A stretch of 64,000 nucleotides of DNA from a virus (lineage: Duplodnaviria; Heunggongvirae; Uroviricota; Caudoviricetes): IMG/VR virus record IMGVR_UViG_2880372215_000004; one strand, 5' to 3'. Positions 1 to 44,000 of the stretch are shown one piece after another. The notes under the pieces were generated by a model. That model was not told where the DNA came from. It searched no databases and saw only the letters and a program-made list of their open reading frames with translations. The position numbers were made by a program, and so were the translations under genes. Numbering within the stretch: position 1 is the stretch's first letter; each line of letters opens with the position of its first letter.

Positions 1-1236
1 CTATGATAACCGCGCATTCAACATGGCTACCTGTTCGTCGTTCATGTCATCAATCCACATACCGTAAATTTCATACACCATCTGCGCAGTTTCATGCCCC
101 ATTTGGCTGGCTATAAATGCCGGGTTCGCTCCTGCCGTCAACAGCCAGCAGGCAAAAGTATGCCGCGTATGGTACGGATTACGGCGGCGAATACCAGCAC
201 GTTTTACTGCTGCATTCCACCTTGCCCCCAAACTGCTTACCGAGTAATAAGGTTTTTGTTTTCCGTTACACACCCTGGGCATGAAAACAAAATGCAGTTT
301 TTGCTTTTCGGTTCTGCCGTACTCCCGATGATAAAAGGTGATTTCGCTTTTGCGATGATGCCCGGTCAGTTTGTATTGCTCCTTCAGTGCTTCAAGAGCA
401 GGCTGCAGTAGTGTTACCGTCCGGATCCCCGCATTTGTTTTTGGGGGACCGAACATATCCAGTATCGTCAGGTTTCTTCTGACATTCACAACTCCCTTCT
501 CGAAATCCACATCCTCCCACGCCAGAGCAGCCAGTTCCCCGTGACGAAGCCCGGAGTATACGGCAAATTTCCACAAGTTCTGGCTCTGTCCTTTTTCACT
601 TTCCATTAATGCATTGAATTCTGTTTTAGATAACGGGTCAGGCTTTATTCTGTTTCTCTGTAATTTCTTTACTCCTTCAAATGGTTTGGTTGATATAAAT
701 CCCGACTGATACGCAAAACGTAACAACGAACAGAGCAGGGCGATATAGTTATCAACTGTGCGCACGGTTCTTCCTTTTTTGTTGGATCTTGGATTATCCA
801 GGTAAAGCGTTTCTCCATGCAGCAGTTCATTCCGGTAGTTTAAGATATCGCTATAACGAATATGCGATATCGGAGTACTCTCACAAATTATTATCCTGAG
901 TGTTTTTAATTGTGATTTCGTTTTCTTCATTGTGTTTGTTGTTAACTCTGTTTCTTTAATTTTTGTCCAGATATCACAAAGCTCCCCGAACGTTTTTATG
1001 ACCCTCGTTGTCACCATTTTTGCCCCAGTGCTGGACTGGGGAAAACGTCTTAAATACTCAAACTCACCGGAATTGATTTCATGAACTATCAACGCTCTTA
1101 AATTCCCGGCTTTTTTAATGTTACTGTTAGTAACCTCCCAGCCTTTCAATGTTTCCCGACATCGTTTTCCTCGAAACATGAACCAGATGCGAATGTATTT
1201 ACCTCGAATCTCGACACCTGTTGGTAATTTAGACAT
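1..1236 (-). CDS. intR: Prophage integrase (tyrosine recombinase), Rac IntR-like, 411 aa, complete
   Basis: Full-length ORF. The N-terminus MSKLPTGVEIRGKYIRIWF and the 411-aa length match my memory of K-12 Rac IntR. C-terminal catalytic region HTRHTFACW...GHETAQMVYEIYGMW. The stop codon sits at window positions 1-3. Confidence 0.9.
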   Translation of the reverse strand: MSKLPTGVEIRGKYIRIWFMFRGKRCRETLKGWEVTNSNIKKAGNLRALIVHEINSGEFEYLRRFPQSSTGAKMVTTRVIKTFGELCDIWTKIKETELTTNTMKKTKSQLKTLRIIICESTPISHIRYSDILNYRNELLHGETLYLDNPRSNKKGRTVRTVDNYIALLCSLLRFAYQSGFISTKPFEGVKKLQRNRIKPDPLSKTEFNALMESEKGQSQNLWKFAVYSGLRHGELAALAWEDVDFEKGVVNVRRNLTILDMFGPPKTNAGIRTVTLLQPALEALKEQYKLTGHHRKSEITFYHREYGRTEKQKLHFVFMPRVCNGKQKPYYSVSSLGARWNAAVKRAGIRRRNPYHTRHTFACWLLTAGANPAFIASQMGHETAQMVYEIYGMWIDDMNDEQVAMLNARLS

Positions 1237-13086: not shown

Positions 13087-13476
13087 CCTGGCCTGAAGCA
13101 TTCACAACGGTAGGAATTGCGATGGCGGTGGCGCTGGTTGTGTATTCGATTTGCCGCTGGGGATAAAAACGATTTGCGGGAAAAGGATAGTTAAGTAGAA
13201 TTGCTGCGGGTGCTTGAGGCTATCTGCCTTGGGCATGAACACCAAAGGCAGATAGAGAAAAACCCACCCGACTATAAATCAAAGTGTATTACCCCCATTT
13301 GTTGGACGATGAAATGGGTTTAGTTAACTATGTCGGTATCGACATGACTAAAACAACCTTAAATTGCTCGATTAATAGACAAGTAGTTTTGAAAGATTAA
13401 ATTTATGCGATCCGGTATTTTCAAGGGATAGCCTTTATGAGGTTATCTTATGGGGTTAAAACATCAAGAACAGTTG

Positions 13477-13485
13477 TGTTATAAT
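13477..13485 (+). promoter_or_regulatory. Extended -10 promoter element (TGtTATAAT) upstream of the methyltransferase gene
   Basis: TGTTATAAT at 13477-13485, about 32 nt before the ATG at 13518, in AT-rich DNA. Confidence 0.45.
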
Positions 13486-13517
13486 ACATAGAAACTAATA
13501 AGAGACGTTGCAACTAT

Positions 13518-14669
13518 ATGAATGTAATAGATTTGTTTTCTGGCGTTGGAGGTCTAAGTCTTGGTGCTGCACGTGCTGGATTTGATGTTAAAATGGCAGT
13601 TGAAATTGATCAACATGCTATTAATACTCACGCAATTAATTTTCCAAGAAGTTTGCACGTCCAAGAAGATGTTTCTTTACTAAATGCAGAAATAATTAAG
13701 GGTTTTTTTAAAAACGATATGCCCATAGATGGTATTATTGGCGGTCCTCCGTGCCAAGGATTTAGTTCAATAGGCAAGGGGAATCCTGATGATAGCAGGA
13801 ATCAGCTTTACATGCATTTCTACCGTTTAGTATCAGAATTACAGCCATTATTCTTTTTGGCAGAAAATGTTCCAGGTATTATGCAAGAGAAATATTCTGG
13901 CATTAGAAATAAAGCATTTAATTTGGTTAGCGGTGATTATGATATTCTTGATCCCATCAAGGTAAAAGCATCTGATTATGGTGCTCCAACTATTCGAACT
14001 AGATATTTTTTTATCGGTGTAAAAAAATCATTGAAGCTTGATATTTCAGATGAAGTATTTATGCCTAAAATGATTGATCCGGTTACTGTAAAAGATGCTT
14101 TGTATGGATTACCAGATATTATCGATGCCAATTGGCAATCAGACTCTGAGAGTTGGCGAACAATTAAAAAAGATCGAAAAGGGGGATTTTATGAAAAATT
14201 ATGGGGGCAGATCCCTCGGAATGTTGGTGATACAGAATCGATCGCTAAGTTAAAAAATAATATCATATCTGGATGTACCGGAACATTACATAGCAAAATC
14301 GTCCAAGAGCGTTATGCTTCCTTATCTTTTGGGGAAACTGATAAAATTTCAAGATCTACAAGATTAGATCCAAATGGTTTTTGCCCGACTTTAAGGGCGG
14401 GAACCGCTAGAGATAAAGGAAGCTTTCAAGCCGTCAGGCCGATCCACCCTTATCATCCAAGAGTGATTACACCAAGAGAAGCTGCTAGATTACAAGGCTT
14501 CCCTGATTGGTTTCGCTTTCATGTAACTAAATGGCATAGTTTCAGACAAATAGGAAATAGCGTGTCACCAATAGTTGCTGAATATATATTAAAGGGGCTG
14601 TACAATTTATTAAATAAAAGAGTACAGCCCGAATATTTAAACCATAATTCTTTGGAAGTTAGGGTATAA
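13518..14669 (+). CDS. DNA (cytosine-5)-methyltransferase, 383 aa
   Basis: All diagnostic C5-MTase motifs are present: I DLFSGVGGLSLG, IV GGPPCQGFS, VI FLAENVPG, VIII TIRTRYFFIG, IX RVITPREAARLQGFPDWF and X QIGNSVSP. Confidence 0.95.
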   Translation: MNVIDLFSGVGGLSLGAARAGFDVKMAVEIDQHAINTHAINFPRSLHVQEDVSLLNAEIIKGFFKNDMPIDGIIGGPPCQGFSSIGKGNPDDSRNQLYMHFYRLVSELQPLFFLAENVPGIMQEKYSGIRNKAFNLVSGDYDILDPIKVKASDYGAPTIRTRYFFIGVKKSLKLDISDEVFMPKMIDPVTVKDALYGLPDIIDANWQSDSESWRTIKKDRKGGFYEKLWGQIPRNVGDTESIAKLKNNIISGCTGTLHSKIVQERYASLSFGETDKISRSTRLDPNGFCPTLRAGTARDKGSFQAVRPIHPYHPRVITPREAARLQGFPDWFRFHVTKWHSFRQIGNSVSPIVAEYILKGLYNLLNKRVQPEYLNHNSLEVRV

Positions 14670-15629
14670 CCTATAGTATTTATAATAGTTATCCCGTTCA
14701 TTTTCGTTTAAAGAGAACTCTTCAGCGGCTGCCTGATATGCTTCTTTATCAGGCAGTTTACTATCTAAATTTATCTTTTCTTTAATTGTTAGTGTTGGTA
14801 TTGCTATTTCTTGCACGTCTTCCCAATTTGTTGAATAAAATTGCCAGTTAGAAAGGTCGCATGCCTTAGATAACTCTATATATTCTTGTTCTGAGGAGAA
14901 AAAACCTGATATTGTCAACATGGTATGACTGCCATCATTATATTGATTTAAGGATAATGGGTAATACTGAATCTTATCCTTACGTCCTGAAAGACCACGT
15001 TCTATTGCTGATCTAAAAGCGTTTGTAATAATTCGTATTAAAAGAGCTTTAATCTTACGATCTGAAAGATCTGCATTTGATATCTGAAGATTAAAATCAA
15101 GATACTTTTTCCCAAGCAATGATTTTAATGAATTAATAAAAGCTTCTTTAAAAATATCTAAACTTTCTCCAACTCTACGTTGGTAATAAGAACTAGGATT
15201 TATGGGGAAGGTGACCTTCAAAATATCAAAAGAGCTTACTTTAGTACTTAGTAAGTGTATATCATCTAGATCCGTTTGTATTTTTTTCGGGGAGGCATAG
15301 TCTAACCATGTTATTGATGGTTTAGAAAAACTATAATCAAGAATAAAGTCATGAGCTGATATTAGCTTACAATCAATACAATTATAAGGCAAATTATATT
15401 TTTGTCTGATGTGAGTAGACTCTTGTTCTTCGAGAGAAATCATATCAGAAAGAGCGATACGATTATGCATGATTCTAAAATCTTCAAGCATCGGACCACC
15501 AAAACCTATATATGTATATTCTTGAATATTTAGTCTTTTGCTTAAGAGGTTTAGGCTTTCGAGAAAAATCTCTCTATCAATAGACTTATTATGCCTTAAG
15601 TGATAGGGAATGTATTGTCCAGACATCAC
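14637..15629 (-). CDS. Unknown 330-aa partner of the MORC-like ATPase. The N-terminal half has a Rossmann/SAM-MTase-like motif pattern
   Basis: The GTG/ATG start overlaps the upstream stop (GTGATG), indicating translational coupling. Motifs are YTYIGFGGPMLEDF, MISLEEQES and ITWLDYASP. The C-terminus ends YYKYYRLYPNFQRIMV. The 3' end overlaps the convergent MTase gene by 33 nt. Confidence 0.7.
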   Translation of the reverse strand: MMSGQYIPYHLRHNKSIDREIFLESLNLLSKRLNIQEYTYIGFGGPMLEDFRIMHNRIALSDMISLEEQESTHIRQKYNLPYNCIDCKLISAHDFILDYSFSKPSITWLDYASPKKIQTDLDDIHLLSTKVSSFDILKVTFPINPSSYYQRRVGESLDIFKEAFINSLKSLLGKKYLDFNLQISNADLSDRKIKALLIRIITNAFRSAIERGLSGRKDKIQYYPLSLNQYNDGSHTMLTISGFFSSEQEYIELSKACDLSNWQFYSTNWEDVQEIAIPTLTIKEKINLDSKLPDKEAYQAAAEEFSLNENERDNYYKYYRLYPNFQRIMV

Positions 15630-17017
15630 TTCACCTCTTCAATCACCGTATCAAAGCATTGCATCCCCACATCAGAAGCGCTAGCATCTTCATGTCCAAA
15701 GAAATATTTAGATAAAATTTTAACATCTTCTTTCTCTCTGGTGAAGATTATTCGTACAGTAGAGCTTTTTTTTACTGGGGTAGGCAGCTTAGGTGTATAT
15801 CGCCACTCATTTTTGTTTCTATTAGGGTTGGACCAGTTATTTTTTTTATCTTCTGGAGTTGATTGTGGGGTAATTTCAAATAAAGATTGAGCTTCATGTG
15901 ACTGAGCTGACTTAAGTAATTTTTTCCCTTCTTCAAGATGCTCACCTTTCCACTGATTGGTGAATCGAATAAAATGCATCATCCCTTCAATCATTTTATT
16001 TCGTACATCATTGTACAATGTAGAACTAAGATCGACACCTCGTTTCGTTGTTGTTATTGGTAATTTTTCTGGGTTTTTACTGGTAAAGCGAACAACCCCA
16101 GAAATTGCTATAAATTGGGTATGAAACCTTGGTACATTAGCAAAGCCCCAACCTGTGAGATGTGTCTTATCACAATATAGAACAACGCGGTCATTGCAAA
16201 TGACAGTCCATCCAGCATCATCAGAACTCCTTTTTTCTAAAACATCATCATTGTCATCTTCTAAATTTTTATAGAAGCCAACAACTAAATCGATATCAAC
16301 ATCGTCTATTTTAGCTTTATATATGTATGGTTCTATTTTAGAATGATCAGTTATGATGTTAATCGGATTATGTTCAACAACAACTCCATTTAATTCTATT
16401 TTAAATCCTTTTTGAATAATAAATGACAATGAGTGTTTTATCTGTAAAAAGAGATCAGTAAGATATGTGCTCTCATTAAATTTTTGTGCCACATTAGAAT
16501 GGAGTTTTTTTATCTCTATAGTTGTGCCTGTTGGATTTTTGTTATCATAGTCACTCTCGTGCATCGGTATTTTCCAACCATCACCATCGATCCAATCAGG
16601 TGTTATATCTACAGTGAATGCGCCATCGGGATTATTCGATTGTATTGAGCAATCTCTACCCATTTTAAAAATGGCTCTTTTCATACCAATACCATAGACG
16701 CCAACGGTGCCTTCATTTTCTTCTTCTTTTTGATGGGGTCGTCCCATTTTAAAAGCATATTCTCGGAAGCTTTTAGGGATACCTCCGCAATTGTCTTCTA
16801 TAATAAAGACATCTTTATTAATCGTAAGTTTCGCATAAAATCCTTCATATGGTTTTGAAGTTTTTTTTGTGTCTTTTATTGTACGTAAAGCCCCATCGAC
16901 GCAGTTATCAAGCAGATCAAGTATGGCATCGTTTAAGTCGATATCTCGAGTTAGCATACTTACAAAAAATCTTTTACTAGGACTAAAGTCTGCTGTTGGA
17001 GTCGTGTTCTCAGTCAT
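15626..17017 (-). CDS. MORC-like GHKL (Bergerat-fold) ATPase, 463 aa
   Basis: N-box DLLDNCVDGA, G1 box IIEDNCGGIP and G2 box GVYGIGMKRAIF. An S5-like transducer segment follows: GWTVICNDRVVLYCDKTHLTGWG...FIAISGVVRFTS...LPITTTKRGVDLSS. Confidence 0.85.
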   Translation of the reverse strand: MTENTTPTADFSPSKRFFVSMLTRDIDLNDAILDLLDNCVDGALRTIKDTKKTSKPYEGFYAKLTINKDVFIIEDNCGGIPKSFREYAFKMGRPHQKEEENEGTVGVYGIGMKRAIFKMGRDCSIQSNNPDGAFTVDITPDWIDGDGWKIPMHESDYDNKNPTGTTIEIKKLHSNVAQKFNESTYLTDLFLQIKHSLSFIIQKGFKIELNGVVVEHNPINIITDHSKIEPYIYKAKIDDVDIDLVVGFYKNLEDDNDDVLEKRSSDDAGWTVICNDRVVLYCDKTHLTGWGFANVPRFHTQFIAISGVVRFTSKNPEKLPITTTKRGVDLSSTLYNDVRNKMIEGMMHFIRFTNQWKGEHLEEGKKLLKSAQSHEAQSLFEITPQSTPEDKKNNWSNPNRNKNEWRYTPKLPTPVKKSSTVRIIFTREKEDVKILSKYFFGHEDASASDVGMQCFDTVIEEVK

Positions 17018-17079
17018 AATTTACTCTCTATGTGTTTGGGAAAATAAATACCTTAAGTGCAAATTGTTGATTTTAAACG

Positions 17080-17093
17080 CTTCGCATGCGAAG
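17080..17093. promoter_or_regulatory. Perfect 14-bp palindrome CTTCGCATGCGAAG in the promoter region of the MORC operon (operator candidate)
   Basis: Lies 63-76 nt upstream of the start codon at 17017. Flanked by GTTGA/TCAAC arms. A second palindrome, AATAACATATGTTATT, is at 17192-17207. Confidence 0.35.
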
Positions 17094-17516
17094 TCAACGA
17101 TGTTAAGAAAGAAAGTGCATGTGATCTAACAGTATGTTTTTAAAAAAAGATTAGCTTTATGAGAATTCAGGACTGAATCCCGTGAGAGGAAAATAACATA
17201 TGTTATTGTTGCATTGCTGTGTTGTTTGGGATTTGTTGCACCATTCTGGCGTTGGTATATCTAGTTCGTTGTTCATTTTGTTAATTGTACAACAGGCAGA
17301 CAACAGAGAGCTTTTAGCCTAGTTAGCTTACGAAATTAAACAACTAAGATTATCGGCGGGGAGTGGTCACCGCTACTCTTTGGCTAGGAGACTTCAACGC
17401 AACCGCACACAACCAGCTTCGGCGGGTTTTGTTTTTTCCTGGCATTCTGGTTTACAATTTGCGTGCTAGCTTGAACAACTGGCATCTGCTGCACTGCGCC
17501 ATCGAGAGATTGAGAA

Positions 17517-19096: not shown

Positions 19097-19172
19097 GGCC
19101 CTTTAGCTCAGTGGTGAGAGCGAGCGACTCATAATCGCCAGGTCGCTGGTTCAAATCCAGCAAGGGCCACCA
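19097..19172 (+). tRNA. ileZ: tRNA with CAU anticodon, ileX/ileZ-like (Ile2, or Met)
   Basis: 76-nt cloverleaf GGCCCTT...AAGGGCCACCA with anticodon loop CTCATAA. Closely resembles E. coli ileX and the Stx-phage ileZ from memory. Confidence 0.85.
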
Positions 19173-19272: not shown

Positions 19273-19349
19273 GCGTTGTTAGCTCAGCCGGACAGAGCAA
19301 TTGCCTTCTAAGCAATCGGTCAGTGGTTCGACTCCACTACAACGCGCCA
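19273..19349 (+). tRNA. tRNA-Arg (UCU), reads rare AGA/AGG codons
   Basis: 77-nt cloverleaf: acceptor GCGTTGT/ACAACGC, anticodon arm ATTGC-CTTCTAA-GCAAT, T arm AGTGG-TTCGACT-CCACT, 3' GCCA. Confidence 0.85.
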
Positions 19350-19387: not shown

Positions 19388-19518
19388 TATCTGCGCCACG
19401 CCCGGCGCATATCAACCACAGAGCCTTTCGGGGGTGAGCTTACGGAGTGGTCAGTGTGACTTTCTCTGTGGGCAGATCGCTCCCGGGCGTTGGCTCACCC
19501 ACCCAAAGGAACGTCACG

Positions 19519-19950
19519 ATGTTTGGAATCTTCAAAAAGAAAACCCGCAGAGCGGCAGCGGAAATTAAAAAGTTTGAGAAACGCGATCTGGCACAGGCGG
19601 TGATTAACGCTGCATACCTGGTGGCCTATGCAGATGGTGAATGCGAGGCATCCGAGAAAGCGAAGATCGAACAGGTCTTACGTAATCAGCCTGCGTTGTC
19701 TGCGTTTACCTCGGAAATTAATGCGATTAGCGCAACTATTATCGGTCAGCTGGATACCAATTTTAAAATTGGTCGTCGTGCCGCGTTACGCGAGATTGAG
19801 GATGTGAAACACGATACGCGTGAAGCGGAAGATGTGCTGGATGTGGCGGTGGCCATTGCGGAGGCAGACGGCGAAATTGAGCCGGAAGAGCGCAAGGTGC
19901 TGGAAGAGATTGCCGGTGTTCTGGGTCTTCGTCTGGAGAATCACCTGTGA
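19519..19950 (+). CDS. TerB-like (tellurite-resistance TerB family) protein, 143 aa
   Basis: MFGIFKKKTRRAAAEIKKFEKRDLAQAVINAAYLVAYADGECEASEKAKIEQVL...AVAIAEADGEIEPEERKVLEEIAG. The paired ADGE motifs are typical of TerB. Confidence 0.65.
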   Translation: MFGIFKKKTRRAAAEIKKFEKRDLAQAVINAAYLVAYADGECEASEKAKIEQVLRNQPALSAFTSEINAISATIIGQLDTNFKIGRRAALREIEDVKHDTREAEDVLDVAVAIAEADGEIEPEERKVLEEIAGVLGLRLENHL

Positions 19951-20524: not shown

Positions 20525-22378
20525 ATGACATTTAAACATTATGATGTTGTCAGGGCGGCGTCGCCGTCAGACCTTGCGGAAAAGCTGACACACAAACTGA
20601 AAGAGGGCTGGCAGCCATACGGCGGACCGGTTGCCATTACGCCGTACACACTGATGCAGGCGGTGGCTATTGAAGGAGAGCCACAGGTCGGCCCTTCATC
20701 TGAGCCGGATTGGTACTACGTCATCGTACTGGCCGGGCAGTCCAATGCCATGGCTTACGGTGAAGGGCTTCCGCTGCCGGATTCATACGATGCTCCGGAT
20801 CCGCGCATTAAACAGCTGGCGCGCCGCAGTACAGTGACGCCGGGCGGGGCTGCCTGCAGATATAACGATATTATTCCGGCTGACCACTGTCTGCATGATG
20901 TGCAGGATATGAGTACGCTGAATCATCCGAGGGCTGACCTGAGCAAAGGGCAGTACGGCTGTGTCGGCCAGGGTTTACATATTGCCAAAAAACTGCTCCC
21001 GTATATCCCGAATAACGCGGGGATCCTGCTGGTACCATGCTGTCGTGGTGGTTCGGCATTTACCCAGGGCGCGGAGGGGACATTCAGCGAGTCCACGGGG
21101 GCCAGTCAGGATTCGGCACGCTGGGGGGTGGGCAAGCCGTTATATCAGGATCTGATTTCCCGCACAAAAGCGGCATTGCAGAAAAATCCCAAAAACGTTC
21201 TGCTGGCCGTCTGCTGGATGCAGGGTGAGTTTGACATGAGCGCCGCCACCCACGCACAGCAACCTGCGCTGTTTACAGCCATGCTGACACAGTTTCGTGC
21301 TGACCTCTCCGTGTTTAACGCGCAGTGCCATGGTGGCAGCGCTGCAGATGTGCCGTGGATTTGTGGTGACACGACGTATTACTGGAAAAATACATACGCT
21401 ACCCAATACGACACCGTGTACGGCGGGTATAAAAACAGGGAGAGTGAGGGCGTTTATTTTGTGCCCTTCATGACAGACGGTAACGGCGTCAATACCGCCA
21501 CTAACGCGCCGGCAGAAGATCCGGATATTCCGGCATCAGGATATTACGGTGCGGCATCGAGAACGAATGGAAACCAGGTATCATCAAACCGCCCGACACA
21601 TTTCAGTTCATGGGCGCGCAGGAGCATTATTCCGGATCGTCTGGCAACCGCTATTCTGAACGCAGCCGGGCGCACCTCCGCCTTCATCAGTGGTAAGGCA
21701 CCGGAAATCAAACCCTCGCCCGGCGGCAACACGCCATCGGGTCCGTCTGCAGATACGTCCGTTCGCACAATCTCCCTGCTGCCGGCAGCCGGAGAGGCTG
21801 CTGCGCAGGGCTGGAGCATTAAGGATGGCGGAATTCAGTTGTCAGATGGTGTATTTAAGATCACCAGGCAGAGCAATAAAACCTGGTCCCTGACGCATCC
21901 GGTGGATGACGCAATTACCCTGCTGACACAGGGCGGCAGACTGAACTGTAAGTTCCGCCTGTCAGGCGCACTGACCAACAATCAGTTCGGGCTGGGGATT
22001 TATCTGTATACGGATGCTCCCGTTCCTGATGGTGTGGCGATGACGGGTACCGGTAATCCGTTCCTGATGTCGTACTTCACTCAGACCACTGACGGCAGAG
22101 TGAATCTGATGCATCACAGGAAAGCCGGAAACACGAAGCTGGGGGAGTTCGGCGATTACGGTAACGACTGGCAGACGCTGGAGCTGGTGTTCACCGCCGG
22201 CAGTGCCACGGTTACTCCGAAACTGAATGGAGTGGCTGGCCCGGCATTCCAGGTTATAAAAGACAGTCTGACACTGGGACTGAATGCGCTGACGCTGACG
22301 GATGTTACAAAAAATGCAGCGTATGGCGTTGAGATAGAAAGTCTGGTGCTGGAGATAAATGCACCGGCATCATCATAA
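20525..22378 (+). CDS. nanS-p: Prophage sialate O-acetylesterase NanS-p, 617 aa
   Basis: N-terminal DUF1737-like [43 protein letters not shown] block [18 protein letters not shown]. Located between the Q-tRNA region and the holin, as in EHEC lambdoid phages. Confidence 0.8.
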
Positions 22379-41055: not shown

Positions 41056-44000
41056 ATGGGCAAAGGTGGCGGCAAGGCGCACACGCCGGTAGAGGCAAAG
41101 GACAATCTTAAGTCCACGCAGATGATGAGCGTGATTGATGCCATTGGTGAAGGGCCGATTGAAGGTCCGGTGAAGGGGCTGCAGAGTATCCTGGTGAACA
41201 AAACCCCGCTGACGGACACGGACGGTAATCCTGTGATACATGGTGTGACAGCGGTCTGGCGCGCCGGGGAGCAGGAGCAGACACCACCTGAAGGCTTTGA
41301 GTCCTCCGGGGCGGAAACCGCACTGGGCGTGGAAGTGACGAAGGCAAAGCCGGTGACGCGCACCATTACGTCCGCGAACATTGACCGCCTGCGGGTCACC
41401 TTCGGGGTGCAGTCACTGTTGGAGACCACCTCAAAGGGCGACCGTAATCACTCTTCTGTCCGACTGCTGATTCAGTTGCAGCGTAACGGTAACTGGGTGA
41501 CGGAAAAGGATGTCACCATTAACGGCAAGACCACCTCGCAGTTCCTGGCGTCGGTGATTCTGGATAATCTGCCGCCCCGGCCCTTTAACATCCGGATGGT
41601 CAGGGAGACGGCGGACAGCACCACGGACCAGCTGCAGAACAGAACGCTGTGGTCGTCATACACCGAAATCATCGATGTGAAACAGTGCTACCCGAACACG
41701 GCCATTGTGGGGCTGCAGGTGGATGCGGAGCAGTTTGGCGGTCAGCAGATGACGGTGAACTACCATATCCGCGGTCGCATCATCCAGGTGCCGTCAAACT
41801 ATGACCCGGAAAAACGCACGTACAGCGGCATCTGGGACGGCAGCCTGAAACCGGCATACAGCAACAACCCGGCCTGGTGCCTGTGGGACATGCTGACTCA
41901 CCCGCGCTACGGCATGGGAAAACGCCTGGGGGCGGCGGATGTGGACAAGTGGGCGCTGTATGCCATTGCGCAGTACTGCGACCAGACGGTCCCGGATGGT
42001 TTCGGGGGCACAGAGCCGCGGATGACTTTCAATGCGTACCTGTCACAACAGCGTAAGGCGTGGGACGTTCTCAGTGATTTCTGCTCGGCGATGCGCTGTA
42101 TGCCGGTATGGAACGGGCAGACGCTGACGTTTGTGCAGGACCGTCCGTCAGATGTGGTGTGGCCCTACACCAGCAGTGATGTGGTGGTGGATGATAACGG
42201 CGTGGGGTTTCGCTACAGCTTCAGCGCCCTGAAGGACCGCCACACGGCGGTGGAGGTGAATTACACCGACCCGCAGAACGGCTGGCAGACCTCCACGGAA
42301 CTGGTGGAAGACCCGGAAGCCATACTGCGCTACGGACGCAACCTGCTGAAGATGGATGCGTTCGGCTGCACCAGTCGCGGTCAGGCCCACCGTGCCGGGC
42401 TGTGGGTGATAAAGACCGGACTGCTGGAAACGCAGACGGTGGATTTCACGCTCGGGTCACAGGGGCTGCGTCACACACCCGGTGACATTATTGAAATCTG
42501 TGATAACGACTATGCCGGGACCATGACCGGCGGACGTATCCTGTCCATCGATGCCGCCAGCCGCACCCTGACACTGGACCGTGAGGTGACCCTGCCGGAG
42601 ACCGGTGCCGCCACGGTGAACCTGATTAACGGCAGCGGTAAGCCGGTGAGCGTGGCCATCACTGCACACCCCGCGCCGGACCGGATACAGGTCAGCACCC
42701 TGCCGGATGGCGTGGAGACATACGGTGTGTGGGGGCTCTCCCTGCCGTCACTGCGCCGTCGCCTGTTCCGCTGTGTCTCCGTCCGGGAAAACACGGACGG
42801 CACCTTTGCCATCACGGCGGTGCAGCACGTACCGGAAAAAGAAGCCATCGTGGATAACGGTGCCCGCTTTGAGCCGCAGTCAGGCACCCTGAACAGCGTC
42901 ATCCCTCCGGCAGTGCAGCACCTGACGGTGGAGGTGAGCGCAGCTGACGGTCAGTATCTGGCGCAGGCGAAATGGGACACGCCGAAGGTGGTGAAGGGCG
43001 TGAGCTTTATGCTTCGCCTGACCGTGGCCGCGGATGACGGCAGTGAGCGGCTGGTCAGCACGGCCCGGACGACGGAAACCACATACCGCTTCACGCAACT
43101 GGCGCCGGGGAACTACAGGCTGACAGTCCGGGCGGTAAATGCGTGGGGGCAGCAGGGCGATCCGGCGTCGGTATCGTTCCGGATTGCCGCACCGGCAGCG
43201 CCGTCACAGATTGAGCTGACACCGGGCTATTTTCAGATAACAGCGGTCCCGCGTCTTGCGGTGTATGACCCGACGGTACAGTTTGAGTTCTGGTTTTCGG
43301 AAACGCGGATTACCGATATCAGGCAGGTTGAAACCACAGCCCGCTACCTTGGCACGGGGCTGTACTGGATAGCCGCCAGTATCAATATCAAACCGGGCCA
43401 TGATTATTACTTTTATATCCGCAGTGTGAACACCGTTGGCAAATCGGCATTTGTGGAGGCTGTTGGCCAGCCGAGTGATGATGCATCCGGCTATCTGGAT
43501 TTTTTCAAAGGAGAGATAGGGAAAACCCATCTGGCTCAGGAGTTGTGGACTCAGATTGATAACGGTCAGCTTGCGCCTGACCTGGCGGAAATCAGAACGT
43601 CCATCACGGATGTCAGTAATGAAATCACGCAGACCGTCAATAAGAAACTGGAAGACCAGAGTGCAGCGATCCAGCAGATACAGAAGGTTCAGGTTGATAC
43701 AAATAATAACCTGAACAGCATGTGGGCAGTGAAGCTGCAGCAGATGCAGGACGGACGCCTTTATATTGCGGGTATCGGTGCCGGTATTGAGAACACCTCT
43801 GACGGCATGCAGAGTCAGGTGCTGCTGGCGGCAGACAGGATTGCGATGATTAATCCTGCGAATGGCAACACAAAGCCGATGTTTGTTGGTCAGGGCGATC
43901 AGATATTCATGAATGAAGTGTTCCTGAAATATCTGACGGCTCCCACCATTACCAGCGGCGGTAATCCTCCGGCATTTTCCCTGACACCGGACGGGCGGCT

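Follow-up and report, generated by a model that had tools for sequence, protein, structure and literature searches.

The 64,000-nucleotide (nt) stretch of caudoviral DNA analysed here, IMG/VR virus record IMGVR_UViG_2880372215_000004 (hereafter the window), carries a compact three-gene cassette that encodes a C5-cytosine DNA methyltransferase (Dcm), a second methyltransferase belonging to the Pfam family PF20553, and a MORC-type ATPase. Positions 13400-17200 are 100% identical to Sp10, a lambda-like prophage of Escherichia coli O157:H7 Sakai, in which the three genes are annotated as ECs_1953, ECs_1954 and ECs_1955. The GC content of this island is 34-38%, compared with 46-50% for the surrounding prophage. 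The genes, and the domains of the ATPase, are as follows.

13100-17500: low-GC insertion (about 34-38%) holding the three genes, delimited by composition and annotation
13518-14669, plus strand: Dcm, 383 amino acids (aa), ECs_1953; Pfam DNA_methylase (E=2.6e-61) and PADLOC MTase_II (E=2e-98)
14637-15626, minus strand: PF20553 (Methyltransf_35) class-I S-adenosylmethionine (SAM)-dependent methyltransferase, 329 aa from its ATG, ECs_1954
15626-17017, minus strand: MORC-type GHKL+S5 ATPase, 463 aa, ECs_1955 / WP_000138556, an intact ATG-started open reading frame (ORF)
16409-17017, minus strand: Bergerat/GHKL ATP-binding domain of the ATPase, aa 1-203, placed from invariant alignment columns and secondary structure
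16022-16408, minus strand: S5-fold transducer of the ATPase, aa 204-332
15629-16021, minus strand: family-specific C-terminal region of the ATPase, aa 333-463, placed from segment conservation and a predicted local distance difference test (pLDDT) score of 85-93

RefSeq names the product of ECs_1955 an 'ATP-binding protein', and the sole family that Pfam recognises in it is HATPase_c_3 (residues 28-132, E=2.9e-9); comparison with NCBIfam and PADLOC yielded nothing meaningful. The protein belongs to a large family, with over 5,430 matching clusters (90% identity), and nearly all of its 120 best matches are 459-495 aa long with a query coverage of 95-100%. Alignment of 83 relatives (43-87% identical) revealed an N-terminal Bergerat/GHKL fold with four nucleotide-binding motifs. 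Motif I reads D34-x2-D37-N38-x2-D41-G42, with D37, N38, D41 and G42 invariant; every residue of the G1 box (D75, N76, C77, G78 and G79) is invariant, as are G106, Y108, G109, G111, K113 and R114 of the G2 lid (G106-x-Y-G-I-G-M-K-R114). Directly C-terminal to this fold lies the S5 domain, in which an invariant block (G269, W270, T271, C274, N275, D276 and R277) is followed by the TGWG...H299-x-Q301 loop (T288, G289, W290, G291, H299 and Q301 invariant) and by the conserved basic residue, K325 (nt 16043-16045), which is invariant within a TTTKRG loop.

In the survey by Iyer, Abhiman and Aravind (2008; PMC2292703), MORCs are set apart from paraMORCs and other GHKL proteins by the S5-domain motif GhXhhpXXRhl. 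The ATPase matches this signature with GWTVICNDRVV (aa 269-279, nt 16181-16213), and a regular expression for it finds a single match, at the same position, in 83 of 83 relatives, as against 0.18% of 20,000 shuffled sequences. The ATPase is therefore a genuine prokaryotic MORC-type GHKL+S5 ATPase, bearing the MORC rather than the paraMORC signature. An earlier note, made from the letters of the window, had called it so on the strength of its N-box, G1 and G2 motifs and of an S5-like transducer with a conserved Lys. Because the defining pattern occurs once in every relative, that structural call proves right, and all the peptide strings that the note had quoted are present (at aa 34, 72, 106, 268, 302, 357 and 457). 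The protein likewise contains none of the HNH, PD-(D/E)xK or TOPRIM patterns that the note had failed to find, and it has no DHp domain with a phospho-acceptor His, nor is its GHKL domain closest to kinase CA domains, so that it is not one of the sensor histidine kinases that the note named as an alternative.

The residue at the general-base position, which lies four places ahead of the Mg-binding Asn, is Asp (D34, codon 16916-16918) in 83 of 83 relatives and likewise in the sister-clade proteins described below. The general base of GHKL ATPases is given elsewhere as a highly conserved Glu (PMC13614785), and this canonical catalytic Glu of motif I is absent from the ATPase. The exchange of Asp for Glu is a conservative one that lies outside the published MORC family definition, and it could imply slow or regulated ATP turnover. 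A conserved N-terminal strap (P13, K15, F17 and F18) hints at strap exchange, as would accompany a predicted ATP-dependent dimerisation.

Beyond the S5 domain, conserved helices (aa 333-369) run into a variable linker rich in Lys, Glu and Asn (about aa 358-405, conservation 0.33), after which a terminal 58-aa module (aa 406-463) is again conserved (0.55). This module, with the pattern P-x-LP-x-P ... RIxF ... VGxxCF, is predicted to fold as beta-alpha-alpha (pLDDT 85-93), and its best-conserved residues include G451, C454 and F455. The C-terminal region has no Pfam match (none at E<=10 for the beta-alpha-alpha module) and no PDB-profile match. The Lys/Glu/Asn-richness that the earlier note ascribed to the last ~110 aa is real (30% versus 20%), and so is the lack of a recognisable domain, but the segment is not featureless, since it holds the conserved module at aa 406-463. 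A ribbon-helix-helix reading of the module, suggested by topology alone, is at most a lead, as neither Pfam (E<=10) nor the PDB profile search lends it support.

The TGA stop codon of the ATPase gene and the ATG of ECs_1954 have one base (A) in common, ...GAGGTGAAGTGATGTCT..., with GAGG placed 8 nt upstream of the ATG; an alternative GTG start at 15629 would give a protein of 330 aa. ECs_1954 matches PF20553 over its full length (residues 2-329; 300 bits, with a gathering cut-off of 27; E=2e-89), and its predicted structure (pLDDT 92.8) is a class-I SAM-dependent methyltransferase fold in which the SAM-binding positions G42/G44, E67 and D110 are invariant. The family stands apart in sequence space: its 2,436 cluster representatives at 50% identity show no spill-over into other methyltransferase families, and nearly all of the 150 best-scoring among them consist of a single domain and are about 310-340 aa long. 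The nearest solved folds are the tRNA/rRNA base methyltransferases Trm1, RlmI/RlmO, RsmD, RlmJ and TYW2, that is, RNA enzymes that methylate N and C atoms. PF20553 differs from the Trm1, RsmD and RlmI types in sharing 8-12% identity with them, in lacking the PP motif, and in having an N-terminal Y-R-K-R helix and a C-terminal helical region of its own. An 'O-methyltransferase' label, which the family name implies, was rejected, as it finds support neither in the fold neighbours nor in the secondary Pfam hits, only 2 of 89 members touching Methyltransf_24, and these weakly; the name itself says nothing about the chemistry. On one viral contig (L114, 7389-8382), the PF20553 gene is broken into two ORFs by an apparent frameshift, with the ATPase and Dcm genes intact.

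The third gene, ECs_1953, is convergent with ECs_1954, their 3' ends overlapping by 33 nt. Its product is essentially identical to the protein of known crystal structure 3G7U (E=1e-254), and the PADLOC models that it matches are the generic MTase_II, DruM and DrmMII. Among about 50 loci from bacteria and one archaeon, the target-recognition region of Dcm is gap-free and 44-53% identical, being conserved to the same degree as the catalytic core, which suggests, from comparison of these sequences, that one specificity has been retained across phyla, an unusual condition for restriction-modification (R-M) systems. No co-variation was evident between the type of Dcm target-recognition domain and the PF20553 subtype, such as would favour a common DNA target.

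Relatives of the ATPase were sought in one genome per species across 185,579 species, and 508 loci were found to encode one, in Proteobacteria, Cyanobacteria, Chloroflexi, Latescibacterota, Acidobacteriota, Firmicutes, Planctomycetota and a methanogen. Neighbourhood counts rest on 80 of these loci. PF20553 lies directly downstream of the ATPase gene in 78 of the 80, usually with overlapping stop and start codons, and in 67 a Dcm homologue adjoins, most commonly immediately upstream and in the same orientation. The ATPase and Dcm occur without PF20553 in two loci; the MORC-PF20553 pair lacks an adjacent Dcm in 12, almost all of them cyanobacterial (L007, L008, L014, L017, L021, L024, L030, L039, L048, L055, L059 and L073). 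The claim of the earlier note that the ATPase has no effector thus stands in cis, where no effector domain is present, but fails for the locus, in which the overlapping PF20553 gene supplies a near-constant partner. Look-ups that began with distant PF20553 proteins led back to the same triad, on a lambdoid prophage of Yersinia, an integrative island of Pseudomonas and an island of Leptospira. In IMG/VR, 73 viral contigs encode an ATPase relative, 68 of them with PF20553 and 67 with the whole triad; a megablast search of the INPHARED phage collection with the cassette gave no match.

In a random sample of 150 locus pairs, ATPase identity closely tracks PF20553 identity (r=0.93), whereas the co-variation of Dcm with either is only about 0.39. 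The ATPase and PF20553 therefore form the co-inherited core, with the methylase as a looser companion. PF20553 evolves fastest of the three, with a median identity of 38% compared with 52% for the ATPase and for Dcm. ORF clustering across the 80 loci, made to find any other gene that recurs (a nuclease or a helicase, for instance), returned only the Vsr endonuclease (PF03852; adjacent in 29 loci, 36%), an HhH-GPD glycosylase (6) and an HsdR-like protein (5). Among 122 sampled flanking ORFs, Pfam and PADLOC disclosed no recurrent partner. The flanks hold scattered Type I R-M, OLD/AriA-like ATPase, MADS and MmeI-type genes, and it is on this account that the cassette can be said to lie frequently among defence genes. 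A UvrD-like helicase gene is convergent with the cassette in two of the 80 loci, both cyanobacterial (L013, 11802-14186, minus strand; L047, 10972-13329, minus strand).

Five IMG/VR viral contigs form a sister clade of the ATPase, in which a MORC-like protein of 573-586 aa occurs without PF20553 (L157, 5977-7722; L158, 5965-7686; L160, 5989-7749; L161, 4704-6464; L162, 5974-7719). The same Dcm orthologue lies directly upstream in all five, and Vsr lies downstream in L158. Homology to the query stops after the S5 domain and gives way to a 165-aa all-helical domain with the invariant motifs DH, VHE, N...HN and R..LP.LR. We considered whether this might be a HEPN domain and abandoned the idea, as it has no Rx4-6H motif, no Pfam match and no PDB match. 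Earlier work describes GHKL paraMORCs that are fused to HEPN RNases, and encoded in R-M neighbourhoods, as analogues of PrrC/RloC (PMC3710099). In the pattern seen in the sister clade, the core of methylase and ATPase stays constant while the C-terminal output is exchanged, and the replacement of both the tail and PF20553 is what would be expected if PF20553 were the output module of the system.

In Sp10, the cassette sits between the replication/DUF genes and the segment running from the ninB-like (DUF1367) gene to the antiterminator genes. The ATPase-PF20553 operon is antisense to phage early(-right) transcription, with which Dcm is co-oriented. Two candidate promoters precede the genes.

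17070-17097, minus strand: sigma-70-like match TTGACT-16-TAAAAT (10/12, by consensus match only), 53 nt upstream of the ATPase start
13456-13485, plus strand: sigma-70-like match with an extended -10, TTAAAA-18-TG-TATAAT (10/12, by consensus match only), 33 nt upstream of the Dcm start

A scan of the region for promoters and terminators gave site counts no higher than expected from shuffled sequence, although the promoter-like sites are well placed. Published microarray data from Sakai show ECs1954 and ECs1955 falling together, by 2.6 and 3.2 fold, respectively, as the cells enter stationary phase (PMC2241611); we verified the mapping of both genes against the Sakai annotation and sequence. 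As both transcripts fall at this point, both genes are expressed in growing Sakai lysogens. Of 5,426 complete E. coli genomes, 172 carry the cassette, always on the chromosome, in single copy and at least 99% identical, and a strain comparison reported it to be specific to O157:H7 lineage I (PMC1890555).

The use of prokaryotic MORCs in R-M systems was predicted in 2008, so the general idea is not new, and that survey (PMC2292703) describes laterally mobile MORC/paraMORC operons of predicted R-M function that, like the cassettes compared here, link a GHKL+S5 ATPase to a cytosine methylase and Vsr. About 70% of those operons are there said to contain superfamily II (SF-II) helicases together with RE-fold, HNH or HKD nucleases, neither of which occurs in the triad; a minority of the neighbourhoods have methylases but no helicase, and the triad's fixed partner PF20553 is not named in the text consulted. 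Measured against classical Type I-III R-M systems, the cassette has a cognate DNA methyltransferase (the C5 enzyme at 13518-14669), but neither an endonuclease (PD-(D/E)xK, HNH, GIY-YIG or PLD) nor an SF-II motor was found in it, and for want of an endonuclease it falls outside the classical definition.

Other known systems offer partial parallels. The very-short-patch repair system of E. coli (MutL-Vsr-Dcm) also brings together a GHKL+S5 ATPase, a C5 methylase and, as in 36% of the present loci, Vsr. BREX and Pgl resemble the cassette, as its working is proposed below, in a methylation-keyed distinction of self from non-self that employs an ATPase and a methyltransferase with no dedicated nuclease; they comprise at least six genes rather than three, however, their mark is N6-adenine rather than C5-cytosine, and a PADLOC search for PglX, PglZ, BrxC and BrxL found none, indicating no homology to BREX. 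In Shedu type I-D (paraMORC3-DUF4263, VcSduA) and MZA (MzaB), as perhaps here, a GHKL ATPase is thought to gate a defence effector (PMC12137116). Neither the ATPase nor PF20553 matched any family in PADLOC-DB v2, which includes BREX, DISARM, Druantia, MZA, Shedu and PDC, at E<=0.1, and the triad is absent from PADLOC 2023. The eukaryotic proteins MORC2, MORC3, MORC4 and SMCHD1 possess CW, coiled-coil, chromo-like and SMC-hinge domains that are absent from the bacterial ATPase, which is about 15% identical to their ATPase modules, has its own 130-aa C-terminal region and Asp in place of the general-base Glu, and, unlike them, would work with a dedicated methyltransferase subunit. Both the ATPase and PF20553 families are already catalogued, in Pfam, under NCBI names and in PHROGs, where each has an entry of 'unknown function'. 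The literature search turned up no paper on the triad, on PF20553/Methyltransf_35, on the WP accessions or on MORC-methyltransferase defence, the only mentions being in tables of strain-comparison and microarray studies.

We tentatively propose, with a probability of roughly 0.45, that the locus is a mobile, methylation-keyed, R-M-like cassette of three genes that lacks a nuclease, in which a MORC clamp gates its methyltransferase partner. The observations behind this proposal are the motifs and folds of the proteins, the translational coupling, co-occurrence and co-evolution of the ATPase and PF20553, the conserved Dcm, the lack of a conserved nuclease or helicase, the spread through prophages and islands, and co-expression. 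In such a scheme, Dcm would write 5-methylcytosine on resident DNA as a mark of 'self', and Vsr, where present, would mend the T:G mismatches that arise from it. The MORC protein would dimerise upon ATP binding through its N-terminal strap and lid, closing as a clamp on DNA. K325 of the S5 domain would complete its active site, and its conserved C-terminal module would tether the PF20553 enzyme. On DNA that does not carry the Dcm mark, the clamp might entrap or silence the DNA, or license PF20553 to methylate a nucleic-acid base, or both, with host nucleases possibly recruited to finish the process. The output of these steps would therefore be ATP-gated binding and methyl transfer rather than cleavage, and the cassette would serve as an immunity or addiction module for prophage and host. 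A more specific version of the proposal is doubtful: that this is nuclease-free immunity with a methyltransferase as executor, in which the clamp senses the missing C5-cytosine mark and either silences unmarked DNA by entrapment or has PF20553 add a disabling methyl group to nucleic acid, the whole being a bacterial counterpart, possibly the ancestor, of the silencing of transposons in plants and animals that depends on MORC proteins and is linked to methylation.

The nearest solved folds of PF20553 also raise the prospect of an abortive-infection guard resembling PrrC/RloC, in which MORC would monitor the methylase or DNA and interference by a phage would cause PF20553 to methylate tRNA or rRNA and block translation. 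The rapid evolution of PF20553 relative to its partners, as is often seen for effectors, would suit such a role, as would the fused helical domain with conserved His motifs that takes its place in the sister clade and the proposal that paraMORC-HEPN fusions act as PrrC/RloC analogues (PMC3710099). We nevertheless judge this unlikely. The structural likeness to RNA methyltransferases reflects a generic class-I core that says little about which substrate is used, no domain for RNA binding was identified, and the sister-clade domain is not a recognisable HEPN domain. We also know of no methyltransferase toxin of this kind.

Less likely still is a modification or epigenetic module without a restriction arm, in which both methyltransferases would modify DNA, with the MORC clamp as loader or processivity factor, and the double modification would shield the mobile element from host restriction or regulate prophage genes. 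The cassette has no nuclease and is carried in prophages and islands; Dcm is encoded on the strand of early-right transcription, the antisense pair having a promoter-like site of its own; and eukaryotic MORCs are functionally linked to DNA methylation (PMC8277788). A strictly conserved and translationally coupled ATPase, with all its catalytic motifs invariant, argues instead for an energy-requiring discrimination, however, and the frequent defence-gene neighbours fit immunity better. DNA methyltransferases, moreover, are not, to our knowledge, known to need an ATPase.

The parallel with MutL, Vsr and UvrD, which is discussed in PMC2292703, would cast the MORC protein as a MutL-like repair accessory: where deamination of 5-methylcytosine leaves T:G mismatches, it would stimulate Vsr and, at times, a UvrD-like helicase. 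The adjacent Vsr (29/80) and HhH-GPD glycosylase (6/80) genes, and the convergent UvrD-like helicase in the two cyanobacterial loci, agree with such a function. Yet Vsr goes with C5 methylases generally, MORC protein present or not; the strictly conserved partner is PF20553 rather than Vsr, the cassette of E. coli lacks a Vsr gene, and the second methyltransferase would be left unexplained, all of which makes a repair role improbable. That the MORC clamp stands alone, ATP-driven clamping being antiviral with no effector, as the earlier note had framed it, is very improbable indeed, for although no effector domain is present in cis and PF20553 is missing from 2 of 80 loci and from the five sister-clade contigs, the gene is coupled in 78 of 80 and co-evolves with the ATPase at r=0.93, and loci without it bear a different fused C-terminal domain.

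The interest of the cassette lies mainly in the fixed partner of a MORC clamp being a methyltransferase and not a nuclease, in a small system that is directly testable in E. coli. Eukaryotic MORC ATPases silence transposons and have ties to DNA methylation, by a mechanism that is still debated, and in the literature searched we found no experimental study of the bacterial MORCs that have been proposed as their source. The cassette is compact (three genes, 3.5 kb), resides in a tractable organism, includes one component with a crystal structure (3G7U), and is distributed among more than 500 species and among prophages. If it does restrict phages or plasmids without a nuclease, it would represent a new route from a methylation mark to immunity and a minimal system for how a MORC clamp reads DNA methylation; and since it marks O157:H7 lineage I (PMC1890555), it may have a bearing on the phages and plasmids that this lineage takes in. 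Should it be only a modification module, it would amount to a commonplace prophage insertion whose accessory ATPase is unusual.

Elsewhere in the window, the Sp10 integrase gene (ECs_1929) occupies the start (1-1236, minus strand), as placed by coordinate offset to Sakai. Downstream of the antiterminator lie two prophage tRNA genes on the plus strand, of which that at 19097-19172 is called tRNA-Met (CAT) by ARAGORN and tRNA-Ile (ileZ, CAT) in RefSeq, and that at 19273-19349 is tRNA-Arg (TCT). Between these and the lysis genes are encoded a TerB-family protein (19447-19950, plus strand) and a 617-aa SASA-family carbohydrate esterase (20525-22378, plus strand). Identity with Sakai Sp10 places a prophage gene for Cu/Zn superoxide dismutase at about 42066-42593 (minus strand) and three nleG type III effector genes at about 48656-50656 (plus strand), the effector genes falling within the second low-GC stretch (about 38-40%), near the prophage end. 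By offset to Sakai, the window continues for about 13 kb beyond that end into the chromosomal genes uspF-ompN-pfo-ldhA-ydbH.

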